From the UHGV virus genome UHGV-0141727: a stretch of 64,000 nucleotides of DNA; one strand, written 5' to 3'. A program made the position numbers and the translations under genes. The notes beneath the pieces are model-generated. The model made no database searches and was not told the origin of the DNA. It saw nothing but the letters and a program-made list of their open reading frames with translations. Below are positions 3,897 through 58,960 of the stretch, in pieces. Numbering within the stretch: the first letter of the stretch is position 1; each line of letters begins with the position of its first letter. The DNA is from a virus.

Positions 3897-4000
3897 GCAG
3901 TCGCTACCGGAGCAGTGACCGCGATCCTACTCGATCACGTGCCGTCGGATCAACAGTGTATAAAAACACACTGTGTTAGAAAATTAAGCTAGCTTTTAGC

Positions 4001-4999
4001 TCACATCCTCTTAGACACAAAGATCAGCGGAGTCACCGTCTTGTTCTCTTTCACCGGTATTTCTTGTTGTTTATTGGCTGATATTGGCAGACCATAAGTG
4101 GCATTAGCCCCTAGGGATTCAAGCATCGCTGCGACAATGCGTGCATCATCCTCTGACTGCATACGGCAGAGCGCCCGGCGCTGTTCTGCGCTGATAAAAA
4201 CAGGCATTTCCTGGATAGCATCACGCAAAATACGGCGGCATTTCTTCGCGTTCTCCCCCTGGCTTTCCATCATCGCGGCCTGGTCGCGTAGTTTGTCGCG
4301 AAGCTGCATATTTTCCACTTCAAGATGTATCAGTTCCGATTCCAGAGCTTCACGCTGTGCTGATTCAATCATTGCTTGTTGACTTTGCATTTGTGCAAAG
4401 TGATGAACAATATCTGTAGCCTGATTGTCAGTGAAACCTTGATCCATCAGCGACGTGTGCATAACAGCTTCACGCTCTTCAACGGACTCCATCATCGGTA
4501 TCTGTTTATCGAGGCTGATATAGTTCGGCACGGTAACGTAATCAAATCCATGAAAGGAGTTTACTATTGACACGAAAGAATCAGGTCCAATAGTCGCCCA
4601 TGACCAACCGCCAGCATTTGAGTTGATCAATCCTTGAACAATATGCCCTGTATATGAATCAAGAATTTCTTGGGTGTGCGTAATGACACCATTATCGTCA
4701 ATAGAAATATCAACTGTTCTGTTAGATGGCACATTTTCCAGAAGAAGAGGCTTACCATCCATCATAACAACGCAAACCTCTGGCAAATCTAGTGATTTAG
4801 TTTTGTTGTAATACATCGAGCGGCGACCATGACCGTAATATCCAAATAGCTCACCAAGAGCCATGCGCTCTTTAACTAGCGGTGATGTTATGGTTTTTCG
4901 CACAGCCTCAATAATGTATTTTCGGTTGTTCTGCGGTGTATGTTTGCGGATTTTCTCTACCAGGGAGAAGCGATCCGTAACGGTATTCAGTGATTGCAT
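4001..4999 (-). CDS. head morphogenesis protein (prohead protease/scaffold-like by size and position)
   Basis: ORF 332 aa immediately downstream of portal-size gene; coiled-coil C-terminal half. Confidence 0.3.
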   Translation of the reverse strand: MQSLNTVTDRFSLVEKIRKHTPQNNRKYIIEAVRKTITSPLVKERMALGELFGYYGHGRRSMYYNKTKSLDLPEVCVVMMDGKPLLLENVPSNRTVDISIDDNGVITHTQEILDSYTGHIVQGLINSNAGGWSWATIGPDSFVSIVNSFHGFDYVTVPNYISLDKQIPMMESVEEREAVMHTSLMDQGFTDNQATDIVHHFAQMQSQQAMIESAQREALESELIHLEVENMQLRDKLRDQAAMMESQGENAKKCRRILRDAIQEMPVFISAEQRRALCRMQSEDDARIVAAMLESLGANATYGLPISANKQQEIPVKENKTVTPLIFVSKRM

Positions 5000-25081: not shown

Positions 25082-25190
25082 TTATCCACAGGGTAGATCC
25101 AATAAATAGATCCCAAAGAGAACCAGTAAGATCCAAAGAAGATCCCGGATCGCTGCGAGCCGCGCCATCACTGGCCTAAATGGAGATCAA
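25082..25190. promoter_or_regulatory. origin-proximal region: DnaA box TTATCCACA plus cluster of six GATC sites
   Basis: perfect DnaA box at 25082-25090; GATC sites within ~100 bp upstream of iterons. Confidence 0.55.
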
Positions 25191-25295
25191 CATTGACTAT
25201 GTGCGATTTAATGTTGACTATGTGCGATTTTATGTTGACTGTACGCGATTTAATGTTGACTATATGCGATATAAACATTGACTGTATGCGATAAT
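25191..25295. repeat. five direct ~19-bp iterons at ~21-bp spacing upstream of repA
   Basis: units (C/A)(A/T)TTGACT(A/G)T(G/A)(T/C)GCGAT repeated 5 times. Confidence 0.75.
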
Positions 25296-25372
25296 TCTCT
25301 CAGCCCTCAGACGGCTGTGGATAAGTATCTTTCATTTGGCTATAAAGCCCCGTCAATCAAGGAAATAACAGG

Positions 25373-26257
25373 ATGGTAGATGACAAAAAAGGCTTTCTGA
25401 ACGTTGAGGAAATATCAGGGAATACCGGAGAAATCCACAGCTTAAAGCCTAACAATAATAGCACTATTCAGCCGATAGCTTTGTTGCGGCTTGGGGTGTT
25501 TGTTCCCACATTGAAATCTACCAGTGTTGCTTTACGTCGCAAGAACGCCGGTTTAACTAACTCCACTGATGCGACAGAAGAACTGTCCAGCCTGAAGATT
25601 GTAGAGCAGGAAGGGTATCAGGGTATTGAGATTCATGGGCCACGTCTGGATATGGATACTGATTTTAAGGTGTGGATAGGCATTACATCTGCATTGTTTG
25701 ACTATAAACCAGATAATGATGGTGTGATCACCCTGACATTCTCTGAATTTGTGGATCGTTGCGGTTATCCAAGGAAGCGGCTGTCCAAGGCTTTTCGCAA
25801 GAGCATTGGCGACTCTCTAACGCGTATTCAGCAGACGTTGCTGAAGTTCAACTTGCCCACCAGCAAAGAACATGTTCGTTATATCCAGATGAATTTATTG
25901 GCATTTAGTGAACTTGATACTGAAAATGACATTATAAGAATCCAACCGCAGAAGCAGTTGTCTGAGTTGTATTACGTTGACTATAAGCGAATATTGAAGC
26001 TCAAAATGCTCGATAAACTTGGCAGGAAAGAGACAGCCAAGGTGCTTTATACGTTTTTCGAAGCGTTACCTTCAAACCCTGCGCCAGTGAGTATTGAGCG
26101 CCTTCGCGCCAGATTGAACCTCAAATCATCGGTTAGCGTTCAGAACAGTGTGATTCGTAAAGCCATGAAAGACTTGGAAGCTGTTGAATATCTTAAATTT
26201 TCAGAGATAAAGAATGGTCGGAAAATAGGTTTCCAGATCCATAAACGAAATCCATAA
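25373..26257 (+). CDS. repA: replication initiator RepA (P1 RepA-like)
   Basis: 294-aa ORF recalled to resemble P1 RepA in conserved blocks (VQPxAL(L/M)RLGVFVP, GPRLDMDTDFK, YTFxExLP) (recalled from memory, not searched); flanked by iterons. Confidence 0.8.
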   Translation: MVDDKKGFLNVEEISGNTGEIHSLKPNNNSTIQPIALLRLGVFVPTLKSTSVALRRKNAGLTNSTDATEELSSLKIVEQEGYQGIEIHGPRLDMDTDFKVWIGITSALFDYKPDNDGVITLTFSEFVDRCGYPRKRLSKAFRKSIGDSLTRIQQTLLKFNLPTSKEHVRYIQMNLLAFSELDTENDIIRIQPQKQLSELYYVDYKRILKLKMLDKLGRKETAKVLYTFFEALPSNPAPVSIERLRARLNLKSSVSVQNSVIRKAMKDLEAVEYLKFSEIKNGRKIGFQIHKRNP

Positions 26258-34036: not shown

Positions 34037-34084
34037 GTGTTAGTATGGTTTAATCTTAATTTTCTAACATAAAACATTAGAACA
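34037..34084. promoter_or_regulatory. operator-like site with TGTTAG/TTTTCTAACA/CATTAGAACA half-sites
   Basis: recurring motif family, directly upstream of plus-strand gene 34085. Confidence 0.4.
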
Positions 34085-39500: not shown

Positions 39501-39506
39501 CGCCGG

Positions 39507-39610
39507 AATAACACCGTTTTGGTTCCATGTGTTATTTTGAAGCTATTTTGATGCCTTTTTAGTACCAGAATGGTGTTATTAGTGTACCGTAACGGTGCTT
39601 GTTTGATGTT
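39507..39610. repeat. centromere-like repeats downstream of partition operon
   Basis: AATAACACCGTTTTGG, AATGGTGTTATTAG and AACGGTG copies related to the upstream set. Confidence 0.4.
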
Positions 39611-39635
39611 ATAAAAGCCCCATATGGGGCTTTTC

Positions 39636-40478
39636 TTAATTAAGCGTGGCTATAATGTCGTTAGCTATCATTCGCGTTGATGCTTTACAGGATACAGAGC
39701 GACGGGATGGCATAGGATACACCTTGAAGCCATTGCCAACGTAAAGTTCGCGAATGTTAGGCGCTCCACTGTTTGTTATCACAATTTTCGCCCCGCGTCT
39801 GTGAGCATCTACCAGCAGCGACACCAGCCGTTGTTGATCTTCAAACCTAAAGCTATGCCCTGAGTAATTTGTAAATCCGGTAGTGTCGGGCAATGGTTCA
39901 TAGGGGGGATCGCAGAAAATCACATCATCATTCCCGGCAGCCTCAATTACACCAGCAAAATCGCCGGACACAAATTCCGAATACTTTGAAATATCGTCAG
40001 CCAGGAACGCCTCCATTTCCGCGAGAGGGAAGTGGGGTGATTTCTGCTTTCCATATCCGACGTTGAACTCTCCTTTACGGTTATAGCGAGTGACGCCATT
40101 AAAACAATGACGATTGAGATACAGGAACGCCGCTGCATGGTGAAGGGAATCATAAGCACCATTGTTGAATGCATTGCGAACATTCAAAAATGCATCAGCA
40201 GAGTTGTAATCCTGAAAAAAACGATATGCCAGTGTGATAAGAGAATGCCCTTCACGCTGCAATGTCTGATAGAAGTTAATCAGGTCATTATTGATATCGT
40301 TCAGCAGGTTGCTTTTAAATCCGGCATTAGTGAAAACAGCGCCACCTCCAACGAAAGGTTCTATCAACCGTTTTCCGTGGGGCAGGTGTTCGAAGATAAT
40401 GGGCAGTGCAGAAAATTTGCCGCCGACCCACTTAAAGACTGGGCGATCAAATTCGTCCTCCGAGCGAATACGTCGCAT
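39636..40478 (-). CDS. dam: Dam-like DNA adenine (N6) methyltransferase
   Basis: ORF 39636..40670; FKWVGGK, FLYLNR...RYNRKGEFNV and DPPY motifs; ATG 40478 places motif I near the N-terminus. Confidence 0.75.
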   Translation of the reverse strand: MRRIRSEDEFDRPVFKWVGGKFSALPIIFEHLPHGKRLIEPFVGGGAVFTNAGFKSNLLNDINNDLINFYQTLQREGHSLITLAYRFFQDYNSADAFLNVRNAFNNGAYDSLHHAAAFLYLNRHCFNGVTRYNRKGEFNVGYGKQKSPHFPLAEMEAFLADDISKYSEFVSGDFAGVIEAAGNDDVIFCDPPYEPLPDTTGFTNYSGHSFRFEDQQRLVSLLVDAHRRGAKIVITNSGAPNIRELYVGNGFKVYPMPSRRSVSCKASTRMIANDIIATLN

Positions 40479-40545
40479 ATGGCTGATAGTGGCTTCCGCC
40501 GCAGGACGATGATTGTCGCTATAAGAAATAAATTTAGCACCAATA

Positions 40546-41226
40546 TCAGCCACGGATTCCCTCCTTATTTGCTTCAAATACAGCTCTTGCAAAACCGTAA
40601 GGTGTCGCGCTACGAAAATTCGCTCTTTCAGGTCCTGGCGGTGCCTTGTGTATTCGGTTATCTGGATCACCTAACGACTCGTCGATTCGCGGAGTTGGCA
40701 TGATGAATCCTTGTCCGCTCCACAGGCATGTTTTTTTGGTGTAATTGTCTTCCTTGCAATATGCAGTGAAGTGATAAGGATGGAATATGTGGTCAGGTTT
40801 ACGCCAGAATGTCGATATTTGGCTGACCGGGTTTTCAATCATGTACGGGCAACCAATCATCTTTGCAATGTCGTAACACTGCCAGACAACCTGCATTGCT
40901 TTGAACTGGAAAACCGGATCTTTTTTCGCTTTATCTGCGAACCAGCGTGCGCCAGATACAGCCAGGTCAGTACATGGAGGGAAACCGGCTAAAAATACAA
41001 CTCTGTGCAAATTTTTCCGAAGGAAATTGTAGACCTCATCACTGTCAATAATTGCGCTGATACGTGTGAGTACAGCACCTGACTCCATCAATTGGCTGCC
41101 GGACTCCTGGTGTTGCGGATCGACAATGACTGCATCAATGCCGTGTTCCAGCCAGGGGGAAACCATATTCCCTGTATAATCACAAAGACTCACCGCCAGC
41201 GGTCGGTTATTAATGCTCTGCTTCAC
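40546..41226 (-). CDS. short C5-cytosine methyltransferase-like protein (motifs I, IV, VI present; no obvious target-recognition domain)
   Basis: ORF 40546..41352; GFPPC and ENP motifs; GTG 41226 with GGAGG RBS overlapping rdgC end. Confidence 0.4.
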   Translation of the reverse strand: MKQSINNRPLAVSLCDYTGNMVSPWLEHGIDAVIVDPQHQESGSQLMESGAVLTRISAIIDSDEVYNFLRKNLHRVVFLAGFPPCTDLAVSGARWFADKAKKDPVFQFKAMQVVWQCYDIAKMIGCPYMIENPVSQISTFWRKPDHIFHPYHFTAYCKEDNYTKKTCLWSGQGFIMPTPRIDESLGDPDNRIHKAPPGPERANFRSATPYGFARAVFEANKEGIRG

Positions 41227-42115
41227 CGCCAATGGCCTCCACCAGCGAGCTAAACATCGCGGATAATTCGCTTGTGAACAGAATGAAGTCAGCATCAAAT
41301 CGCTGGGCAACATCTTCACGGTCGATGTCATCGTTCTGGTCATAGAGATCATCGCAAAACGTCAGTGCTTTGATGCTCATGTCATCGTTTAACCTGAAGG
41401 TCGCGCGGTCCTGCCAGTTGATTGCAACTGTTGTTGCAACTTTTCCGGCTTCAATATGAGTCATTATTTCCTCTGACTGTAGGTCTACTTTCTTGCAACG
41501 AACTGCGCCGCCGTCATCGAACAGAGATTTCAATATGGCTTCTTCGCCTGCTTTAAAGCCTTGAGGAAATGTTGACTTGAACCATTCGGTCATAGTCATT
41601 TCGAGCGGTTCTATCGGCGTGAATGGAATCACCGGAAGGCTGCCAAGTGATTTACGTAAGAGCGCCAGCATTTCTTCTGCTTTTCTGGCGCTGGAAGCTT
41701 CTACGAAGACCAGATAGTTGTCGCGATCAATAAGGATTCGCGACAATGATTTGCGAGTGAATGCGCGAGGCAACAAAGAGTGGAGAACTTCATCCTTCAG
41801 GGTGTTTTTTTCCGACTTCTTCAGCTTACGGGATTGCTCATTTTCGAGCTTTTCCACTTTTTTCTGCACTTCCTCCTTAATGACATGAGAGGGCAGGAGC
41901 TTAATTTCTCGCTGTTGCTGGAGAAGTAGAAAACCGTGGTATTCATGGATCAGGTTGTCAGCCAGAACCGGCACCCATCCGACTTTTGCCATTTCTTGTG
42001 ATGCGCATGGAGTGAATGTGAATTGGCTTAAGGCATCACTAACGGTGGTTGAGTCCAGTTTAATTTCGCGGGCAAGGCGATAGACGTATATGTTTTTAAA
42101 TGCGACCAATCTCAT
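41210..42115 (-). CDS. rdgC: recombination-associated protein RdgC (P1 HrdC-like)
   Basis: 301-aa ORF recalled to resemble E. coli RdgC along its length (recalled from memory, not searched). Confidence 0.8.
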   Translation of the reverse strand: MRLVAFKNIYVYRLAREIKLDSTTVSDALSQFTFTPCASQEMAKVGWVPVLADNLIHEYHGFLLLQQQREIKLLPSHVIKEEVQKKVEKLENEQSRKLKKSEKNTLKDEVLHSLLPRAFTRKSLSRILIDRDNYLVFVEASSARKAEEMLALLRKSLGSLPVIPFTPIEPLEMTMTEWFKSTFPQGFKAGEEAILKSLFDDGGAVRCKKVDLQSEEIMTHIEAGKVATTVAINWQDRATFRLNDDMSIKALTFCDDLYDQNDDIDREDVAQRFDADFILFTSELSAMFSSLVEAIGGEAEH

Positions 42116-42123
42116 ATTTCGTA

Positions 42124-42165
42124 AAACTGTGTTAGAAAATAAAACTCAATTATCTAACACAGTTT
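42124..42165. promoter_or_regulatory. perfect 13-bp inverted repeat AAACTGTGTTAGA/TCTAACACAGTTT operator-like site upstream of rdgC operon
   Basis: member of TGTTAGAA motif family. Confidence 0.45.
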
Positions 42166-42174
42166 TGTATTTTT

Positions 42175-48850: not shown

Positions 48851-48885
48851 AGTTATTCAAAATCCTTTTTAATAAACTACATGTT

Positions 48886-48922
48886 ATAAACTACAGGTTA
48901 TATCATATAACCTGTAGTTTAT
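48886..48922. promoter_or_regulatory. 37-bp perfect palindrome in promoter region of toxin-antitoxin operon (candidate operator)
   Basis: ATAAACTACAGGTTATAT C ATATAACCTGTAGTTTAT. Confidence 0.5.
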
Positions 48923-48955
48923 ATTTTCAAGGCCATTTTTTATTCGATTTAGCAT

Positions 48956-53872: not shown

Positions 53873-53911
53873 ATGTGTTAGAAAATCAAAATTGATTTTC
53901 TAACACAAAAT
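53873..53911. promoter_or_regulatory. near-perfect 34-bp palindrome TGTGTTAGAAAATCAA AA TTGATTTTCTAACACA in divergent promoter region
   Basis: strongest member of the recurring operator-like motif family. Confidence 0.5.
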
Positions 53912-58925: not shown

Positions 58926-58960
58926 GATGTTAGAATATTGATTTTAATTTTCTAACAGAT
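58926..58960. promoter_or_regulatory. operator-like inverted repeat TGTTAGAA-N14-TTCTAACA upstream of 59000 gene
   Basis: member of recurring motif family. Confidence 0.4.

Follow-up and report, generated by a model that had tools for sequence, protein, structure and literature searches.

In phage P1, the RdgC homologue gene hrdC is followed by dmt, which encodes cytosine-type and adenine-type methyltransferase functions in one polypeptide. In the 64,000-nucleotide stretch of viral DNA analysed here (virus genome UHGV-0141727, hereafter the window), rdgC is instead followed by two genes, a short one with motifs of C5-cytosine methyltransferases and dam. The locus raises the question of whether the short gene encodes an enzyme in its own right, a partner of Dam, or one half of a broken dmt, and how the three genes are controlled. 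Judging by its sequence, the window is a D6-like, P1-family phage-plasmid of Escherichia coli; the region is 99.8% identical to the E. coli plasmid pEC361_3 and ~74% identical in nucleotide sequence to phage D6. We conclude that the locus is probably a repressor-controlled early operon, composed of a promoter with a palindromic operator, rdgC, a minimal C5-methyltransferase gene, dam, and a terminator. As far as its sequence allows a judgement, the 226-residue product of the short gene is most likely an active minimal C5-methyltransferase, and not a degenerate domain or a subunit of Dam.

The three genes lie consecutively on the minus strand, as described in the initial annotation of the window: rdgC (the P1 hrdC homologue; 42115-41210, 301 residues), the short stand-alone C5-cytosine methyltransferase-like gene (41226-40546, 226 residues), and dam (Dam-family N6-adenine methyltransferase; 40553-39636, 305 residues). 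The short open reading frame (ORF) is open from 41352, and its real start is the GTG at 41226, because this is the sole start that retains the N-terminal LCDxTG segment conserved in homologues. The resulting protein has the same length as D6_64. The sequence GGAGG is located 9 nucleotides 5' of this GTG, and the gene overlaps the 3' end of rdgC by 17 nucleotides. The dam ORF is open from the GTG at 40670, and its real start is the GTG at 40553, the same start that is annotated by the Prokaryotic Genome Annotation Pipeline (PGAP) in pEC361_3. It is preceded at 6 nucleotides by AAGGAGG and overlaps the stop of the short gene by 8 nucleotides (GTGGCTGA). The 39-codon extension of the dam frame (40554-40670) shows no protein-level conservation between the window and D6 and is therefore regarded as non-coding. 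The frames of the two methylase ORFs differ, dam being +1 relative to the short ORF, in agreement with the earlier description. A candidate bidirectional intrinsic terminator marks the end of the operon (39613-39634, no strand). It is a perfect G+C-cored palindrome, AAAAGCCCCATATGGGGCTTTT, identified by inverted-repeat search and from the sequence; it begins 1 base past the dam stop, has T/A runs on both sides, and is 100% conserved in a sister plasmid of E. marmotae.

The identities of the two outer genes are straightforward. The rdgC product matches Pfam PF04381 over residues 6-298 of 301 (E-value 1.2e-100), NCBIfam NF001462 with 375.6 bits against a cut-off of 330, and phrog_724, and is thus a full-length member of the RdgC family. 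The dam product matches Pfam MethyltransfD12 (PF02086) with an E-value of 2e-53 and 182 bits (cut-off 22), and TIGR00571 with 231 bits (cut-off 114.85). It contains the DPPY catalytic motif in the context FCDPPYEP, placing it in the Dam family (D12 class), and its description as a canonical Dam is borne out. Residues 471-753 of P1 Dmt are 69% identical to it, which suggests that it recognizes GATC as well.

An inverted repeat lies just upstream of rdgC. Its 18-nucleotide arms (42123-42140 and 42149-42166) are 94% complementary, and the outer 14 nucleotides are perfectly paired; the repeat reported in the initial annotation is present and belongs to an operator-like family, with a perfect arm of 14 nucleotides, not 13. 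Within the repeat (42123-42166), a bivalent, palindromic operator-like site has the form TGTGTTAGAAAAT-N8-ATTATCTAACACA (42128-42161, no strand). Two copies of the 34-bp pattern TGTGTTAGAAAAT-N8-ATTTTCTAACACA are present in the window (42128-42161 and 53874-53907), whereas 100 shuffles yield none. D6 keeps both half-sites upstream of rdgC though the flanks diverge, and also carries half-site copies upstream of c1, lpa, and ref, which we take to be C1-controlled genes in P1. Compared with the P1 operator Odmt, the half-site agrees at 10 of 17 positions. A sigma-70-like promoter candidate (42177-42149, minus strand) was found by consensus scan and is a weak match (9 of 12 positions). It consists of a −35 element TAGAAA (42177-42172), a 17-nucleotide spacer, and a −10 element GATAAT (42154-42149), and the −10 element falls inside the first operator half-site. 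Because the half-sites recur, are conserved in D6, precede c1, lpa, and ref, resemble Odmt, and overlap the −10 element, we predict that the repeat is a bivalent C1-type operator, by analogy with P1. GenBank annotation and our own site mapping are the basis of the operator assignments. Of the operator control claimed for the operon, the operator-like family member upstream, the equivalent of P1 Odmt, is thus in place, and control itself is predicted.

Among the alternatives to the operon proposed here, the one that survives best is that the repeat is mainly a terminator or attenuator of the upstream baseplate gene, with rdgC, the short gene, and dam being read through from the late tail operon. 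We consider this unlikely. The repeat begins 9 nucleotides past the stop of the upstream gene (end 42175), and its RNA hairpin (−18.5 kcal/mol, z −4.2) ends in UUUU. However, the stem is A+U-rich and is not called by the terminator scan. The same 34-bp palindrome at 53874-53907 sits between divergent ref-like and orf88-like genes, indicating that the palindrome is not a terminator only. In addition, single half-sites in D6 are placed as at promoters, upstream of c1, lpa, and ref, and the half-site resembles Odmt, the C1 operator of P1. The terminator and operator roles are not mutually exclusive, and the predicted operator could also serve as a weak terminator for the baseplate gene.

Further copies of the TGTGTTAGAAAAT half-site are found at 2775-2787, 3972-3984, 34059-34071, 53874-53907, and 58926-58959, two of them as 34-bp palindromes. 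The copies at 2775-2787 and 3972-3984 are exact 13-mers, and those at 34059 and 58947 are near-exact. They probably mark other repressor-controlled promoters of the element. A 12-mer, AACTGTGTTAGA, was rejected as the signature of the family, its count being at chance level; it was the TGTGTTAGAAAAT half-site, together with the 34-bp palindrome, that revealed the family. At 48885-48923, a perfect inverted repeat of 19 bp whose arms are 1 nucleotide apart (TATAAACTACAGGTTATAT / ATATAACCTGTAGTTTATA) is unrelated to the operator family.

The 226-residue protein contains LCDYTG (residues 14-19, motif I-like), FPPC (82-85, motif IV), ENP (131-133, motif VI), a KK pair (164-165), and a C-terminal motif-X-like helix. 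The motifs I, IV, and VI named in the initial annotation are therefore present, and the length given there, ~227 residues, becomes 226 with the start at GTG 41226. In an alignment of 97 diverse homologues, which are 34-51% identical to the query, residues C85, E131, P133, K164, T166, and W169 are invariant, and F82, P83, N132, and an RS-TP-GF segment are at least 90% conserved. Motif IV is thus FPPC with an invariant cysteine and motif VI is ENP with an invariant glutamate; a catalytic cysteine context, the lack of which had been proposed as a reason to abandon the assignment, is evident throughout the alignment. The protein matches phrog_757, annotated as 'DNA methyltransferase', over residues 3-223 with an E-value of 3.1e-78, which places it in that family. 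Homologues are found in 1571 phage records and number more than 7600 proteins in a large protein collection. Among the best 120 of the more than 7600, all but one are 179-267 residues long, and no precomputed Pfam domain falls in the part corresponding to the short protein. An exhaustive profile search with the short-methylase family gives 2481 clusters at 50% identity.

The linear order of the motif I-like LCDxTG segment, FPPC in motif IV, ENP in motif VI, and the motif-X-like helix is that of canonical PF00145 C5-methyltransferases such as M.HhaI and the catalytic domains of DNMT3A/B. In the structure model, the protein has a class I S-adenosylmethionine (SAM)-dependent methyltransferase fold that is closest to solved C5-methyltransferases. 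It differs from the canonical enzymes in an extra proline in motif IV, in KK in place of RxR in motif VIII, in being below detection by the PF00145 model and by PDB sequence and profile searches, and in having a variable region of ~35 residues where the canonical enzymes have a large target-recognition domain. This region (residues 172-205) lies between the motif-VIII-like KK and the motif-X-like segment, and insertions in the family fall there. The target-recognition domain of typical bacterial C5 enzymes comprises 80 or more residues. It is accordingly fair to say, as the initial annotation did, that the protein lacks the length for a target-recognition domain, if a canonical one is meant.

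An activity has been reported for a member of the family. The 711-bp 'Dcm' gene of phage K42 (Drexlerviridae) is the trigger of retron Ec86; K42 Dcm alone reportedly raises 5-methylcytosine in the multicopy single-stranded DNA (msDNA) of the retron, as measured by liquid chromatography coupled to mass spectrometry (LC-MS), and triggers the retron, whereas the C82A/E128A/K175A/K176A mutant does neither (bioRxiv 10.1101/2023.08.16.553469). Overexpression of K42 Dcm is reported to be toxic (bioRxiv 10.1101/2023.08.16.553469). Warwickvirus MartyMcPhage contains a 711-bp gene whose 236-residue product has C82, E128, K175, and K176 at exactly the numbers published for K42 Dcm. This protein is 40% identical to the window protein over the full length (tblastn E-value 1e-33), and its four residues align opposite C85, E131, K164, and K165 of the window protein. 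In particular, the invariant K164 and the adjacent K165 align with the two lysines, K175 and K176, that were replaced in the K42 Dcm mutant. Dcm of the K42/KarlJaspers type thus belongs to the same protein family and size class as the short protein. The contexts differ: the K42-type gene is in a lytic siphovirus with no adjacent rdgC or dam, whereas the window gene is between rdgC and dam. Compared with the window protein, the K42-type protein of Warwickvirus carries 14 additional residues ahead of the KK motif, and the loop that follows this motif is different.

Several observations weigh against the conclusion that the protein is a C5-methyltransferase encoded in a repressor-controlled operon. 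No methyltransferase model of Pfam (E-value ≤0.1), NCBIfam (≤1), or PADLOC (≤0.01) matches the short protein; in the same Pfam test, the N-terminal domain of P1 Dmt matches PF00145 at 1.6e-35. PDB sequence and profile searches with the short protein gave nothing meaningful, the best match being ornithine decarboxylase with an E-value of 0.27. Comparison with the P1 C5 domain by hhalign is not significant (E-values 0.25 and 0.23 with profiles of 20 and 97 sequences, respectively). Foldseek matches to the PDB are weak (best E-value 1e-3), and RNA methyltransferases of the FtsJ/Spb1 type rank beside DNMT1. The catalytic loop (residues 86-94) is modelled with a predicted local distance difference test score below 50, and the arginines of motif VIII are replaced by lysines. 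The connection with K42 Dcm is drawn from agreement in gene length and residue numbering with a related phage, the evidence for 5-methylcytosine in the family comes from a homologue of 40% identity described in a preprint, and the CCWGG specificity given there was assumed from E. coli Dcm, not mapped (bioRxiv 10.1101/2023.08.16.553469). Finally, repressor binding, the promoter, and co-transcription are predicted from motifs and from the analogy with P1.

Alignment of the short protein with P1 Dmt, which the initial annotation had suggested, gives a divided answer. The Dam half is homologous, as described above, whereas BLASTP detects no similarity between the short protein and the PF00145 domain of Dmt, nor does hhalign at a significant level. 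The lone, non-significant hhalign alignment with the profile of the Dmt N-terminal domain pairs FPPC...ENP with TPCQ...ENV in register. A protein search seeded by the N-terminal domain of P1 Dmt, made for a diverse PF00145 profile, returned only close relatives of Dmt.

The initial annotation offered that the short protein might be a degenerate domain, a partner subunit, or a non-methylating DNA-binding protein. A catalytically inactive protein of this sort, whether it served in DNA binding or regulation or as a subunit that partners the adjacent Dam or gives it specificity, appears improbable to us. It would account for the missing canonical target-recognition domain, for the failure of all curated methyltransferase models, and for the tight coupling of its translation to that of dam, and one 563-residue metagenomic protein fuses the short-methylase domain to a Dam domain. 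Degeneration, however, is at odds with the invariance of Cys85, Glu131, and Lys164 in the 97 homologues. A role as a partner of Dam is not supported by the homologues that stand alone: in the four other genomes examined (Pseudomonas, Cedecea, and Agrobacterium prophages and Warwickvirus), no Dam gene is near the short-methylase gene. A non-methylating function does not agree with the rise in 5-methylcytosine reported for K42 Dcm alone and lost upon mutation of Cys82, Glu128, Lys175, and Lys176. In addition, one member of the family carries an intein, and inteins usually reside in active enzymes.

The family also includes rare architectures. Besides the intein-bearing member (Hint/LAGLIDADG), there is a member with a C-terminal HNH nuclease domain. 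The 563-residue fusion with Dam comes from a single 2-kb Logan contig (218-1909) and could be an assembly error; no relatives of it were found in genome contigs, and the fragment upstream of it is not RdgC. Such architectures agree with an autonomous enzyme, joined to Dam on occasion, and not with an obligatory subunit. In the Agrobacterium prophage, the short-methylase homologue is located ~3 kb downstream of a gene that combines RdgC and FtsK-gamma domains (1-742 and 4001-4708), and also near a gene for a RecA-dependent nuclease; this hints that the association of RdgC with a methylase recurs outside the P1 family.

An equally improbable alternative retains the fold and chemistry of a C5-methyltransferase and changes the product or the substrate, such that the enzyme transfers a non-methyl group or acts on single-stranded or hairpin DNA or on RNA. 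The Foldseek ranking, in which RNA 2'-O-methyltransferases stand as high as DNMT1, and the fact that the only reported substrate of the family is the msDNA hairpin of a retron both point in this direction. On the other hand, the product detected by LC-MS in the K42 study was 5-methylcytosine, no gene for a carboxy-SAM synthase or other modification enzyme was identified in the operon, and the short gene takes the place of an ordinary PF00145 domain in a sister plasmid. An active minimal C5-methyltransferase therefore remains our preferred assignment.

The comparison with P1 and with the sister plasmid shows what the short gene replaces. The P1 record contains a uhr-hrdC-dmt operon behind the C1 operator Odmt (Op68) and the promoter Pdmt, and Dmt is a single protein of 754 residues with an N-terminal PF00145 C5 domain and a C-terminal Dam domain, confirming the order of hrdC and a bifunctional dmt that the initial annotation had given. 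P1 and the window thus have in common an RdgC homologue followed by cytosine-type and then adenine-type methyltransferase functions, with a repressor-type operator in front. They differ in that Dmt is one polypeptide, whereas the window has two genes with separate starts in different frames and so encodes no bifunctional Dmt; only the Dam half is homologous, the short protein belonging to another family. In addition, uhr is an extra gene of the P1 operon, and the P1 operator is monovalent (17 bp, ATTGCTCTAATAAATAT), whereas that of the window is a bivalent palindrome whose half-site is related to it without being the same.

The E. marmotae plasmid NZ_CP056699.1 (637-2925) shares its backbone with the window. 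Its rdgC and upstream region are 98.8% identical to those of the window, and its dam core is 93.5% identical. Between them, window positions 40459-41208 are replaced by ~1.45 kb in which a PF00145 domain is fused in frame to Dam, giving a product of 762 residues that is 67% identical to P1 Dmt. The breakpoints of the swap are at the rdgC stop and ~30 codons into dam. Because the short gene occupies the same position as the PF00145 domain in both P1 and the sister plasmid, it is a non-orthologous replacement of the C5 module. One slot can thus be filled either by the mini-enzyme or by the canonical C5 domain, which argues indirectly for a shared function. Near-identical backbones that carry either the mini-enzyme with Dam or a fused C5-Dam protein constitute a clean natural case of non-orthologous module replacement.

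The suspicion that the two methylase ORFs represent a bifunctional dmt of the P1 type, split into a pseudogene by a sequencing error or a recent frameshift between 40478 and 40670, is hardly credible: the dam-frame ORF does remain open for 39 codons 5' of its real start, overlapping the short ORF, and a single fused gene stands at this position in P1 and in the E. marmotae plasmid, but the short ORF has no similarity to the C5 domain of Dmt, D6 keeps two separate genes despite its ~74% identity, with an ATG start for dam, the upstream extension of the dam frame is not conserved as protein between the two, each start is preceded by a strong Shine-Dalgarno sequence, and a 750-bp cassette from this region is matched without indels in near-identical plasmids. 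Of 5426 complete E. coli genomes, 89 carry this cassette, in each case on a plasmid, and 16 E. coli genomes have it at ≥99% identity. All eight plasmids listed (99.5-99.7% identical) match it over exactly 750 bases with no indels, which excludes a sequencing frameshift. A fusion by programmed +1 frameshifting was rejected as well. There is no slippery codon (GGC UGA would need re-pairing as GCU), the Shine-Dalgarno-like element is 8 nucleotides from the shift codon and correctly spaced for initiation at GTG 40553, and the junction sequence of D6 differs yet keeps the overlap of start and stop. In the frameshift of prfB, the Shine-Dalgarno-like element is roughly 3 nucleotides from the shift codon.

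The arrangement itself is ordinary and already catalogued, being annotated in phage D6. The D6 record (MF356679) describes orf65 as 'recombination associated protein of RdgC family' and as 'similar to P1 gene hrdC', orf64 as 'putative DNA-cytosine methylase', and orf63 as 'site-specific DNA-adenine methylase'. These are the same three genes in the same order, on the same strand and with the same overlaps as in the window, with the same palindromic half-sites upstream of rdgC. The neighbours are also alike, baseplate gene 5 on one side and a parA-like gene with orf61 on the other. At ~74% nucleotide identity only, D6 represents a separate lineage; the short proteins are 84% identical and the Dam proteins 71%. 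The dam start is an ATG overlapping TAA in D6 (ATGAGTAA) and a GTG in the window. D6 carries glnS, the glutaminyl-tRNA synthetase gene, between orf61 and dam, whereas the window has no glnS there; window positions 39501-39635 are ~135 bp of intergenic sequence where D6 carries this gene.

We propose the following mechanism. In the lysogen, the C1-type repressor of the plasmid would bind the palindrome and keep the operon off, because both the −10 region and the likely transcription start (predicted near 42142) fall within the palindrome. Upon induction or infection, a single mRNA comprising rdgC, the mini C5-methyltransferase gene, and dam would be made, and the translation of the three genes would be coupled, since every start codon overlaps the preceding gene's end and is served by a Shine-Dalgarno sequence of its own. 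The 226-residue protein would act alone and depend on S-adenosylmethionine, with Cys85 of FPPC as the nucleophile and Glu131 of ENP protonating N3, and the ~35-residue loop would stand in for the large recognition domain. Dam would methylate GATC, like the Dam domain of P1 Dmt. Together, both enzymes would mark replicating phage DNA at cytosine C5 and at GATC, and this marking may provide protection from restriction as well as GATC methylation for P1-type processes.

A predicted plasmid origin is located at 25083-25300. It contains a DnaA box, TTATCCACA, followed by a ~60-bp cluster of five GATC sites and then by five ~20-bp direct repeats (iterons, ATGTTGACTATGTGCGATTTA-like) just upstream of a 294-residue ORF (25373-26257, plus strand), which is taken to be repA from its position. 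This layout resembles that of P1 oriR, which we take to depend on GATC methylation. The GATC cluster of the origin may be linked to the dam gene.

A broader proposal is that the ~220-residue family is a distinct class of minimal C5-methyltransferases that recognize DNA without a canonical target-recognition domain. We put it forward tentatively and regard it as doubtful, though clearly less remote than the alternatives dismissed above. If it is true, the specificity of the family could be very short, relaxed, or structure-dependent, and phages and phage-plasmids would gain broad anti-restriction cover. The gene would be kept behind a repressor operator because such methylation would be toxic in McrBC+ hosts, and defences that sense methylation, such as retron Ec86, would be triggered naturally by D6-like phage-plasmids. 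The reported toxicity of overexpressed K42 Dcm is compatible with this proposal and is not evidence for it. More generally, probable active C5-methyltransferases of this type change predictions of phage-plasmid methylomes, of restriction evasion, and of the triggering of retrons and type IV restriction.

The findings matter in practice mainly for annotation and evolution. Pfam, NCBIfam, and PADLOC lack a model for the family, which comprises at least 2481 clusters (50% identity) and includes genes of more than 1500 phage records. In all eight E. coli rows listed, the gene in the 750-bp cassette bears the label 'hypothetical protein'. The start annotated in pEC361_3 is the ATG at window position 41166, which removes the conserved motif I. 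At NZ_AP027414.1 4045-4665 (window 40546-41166), this internal ATG is used by RefSeq/PGAP, and the resulting 206-residue protein has lost the LCDYTG segment. Distant homologues on Pseudomonas and Acinetobacter plasmids (~200 residues, ~30% identity) are labelled 'DNA cytosine methyltransferase'. The annotation of the family is thus inconsistent, the distant plasmid copies being named as methyltransferases and the closer E. coli copies not. Of 229 matching plasmids, 52 are typed as mobilizable and 27 as conjugative.

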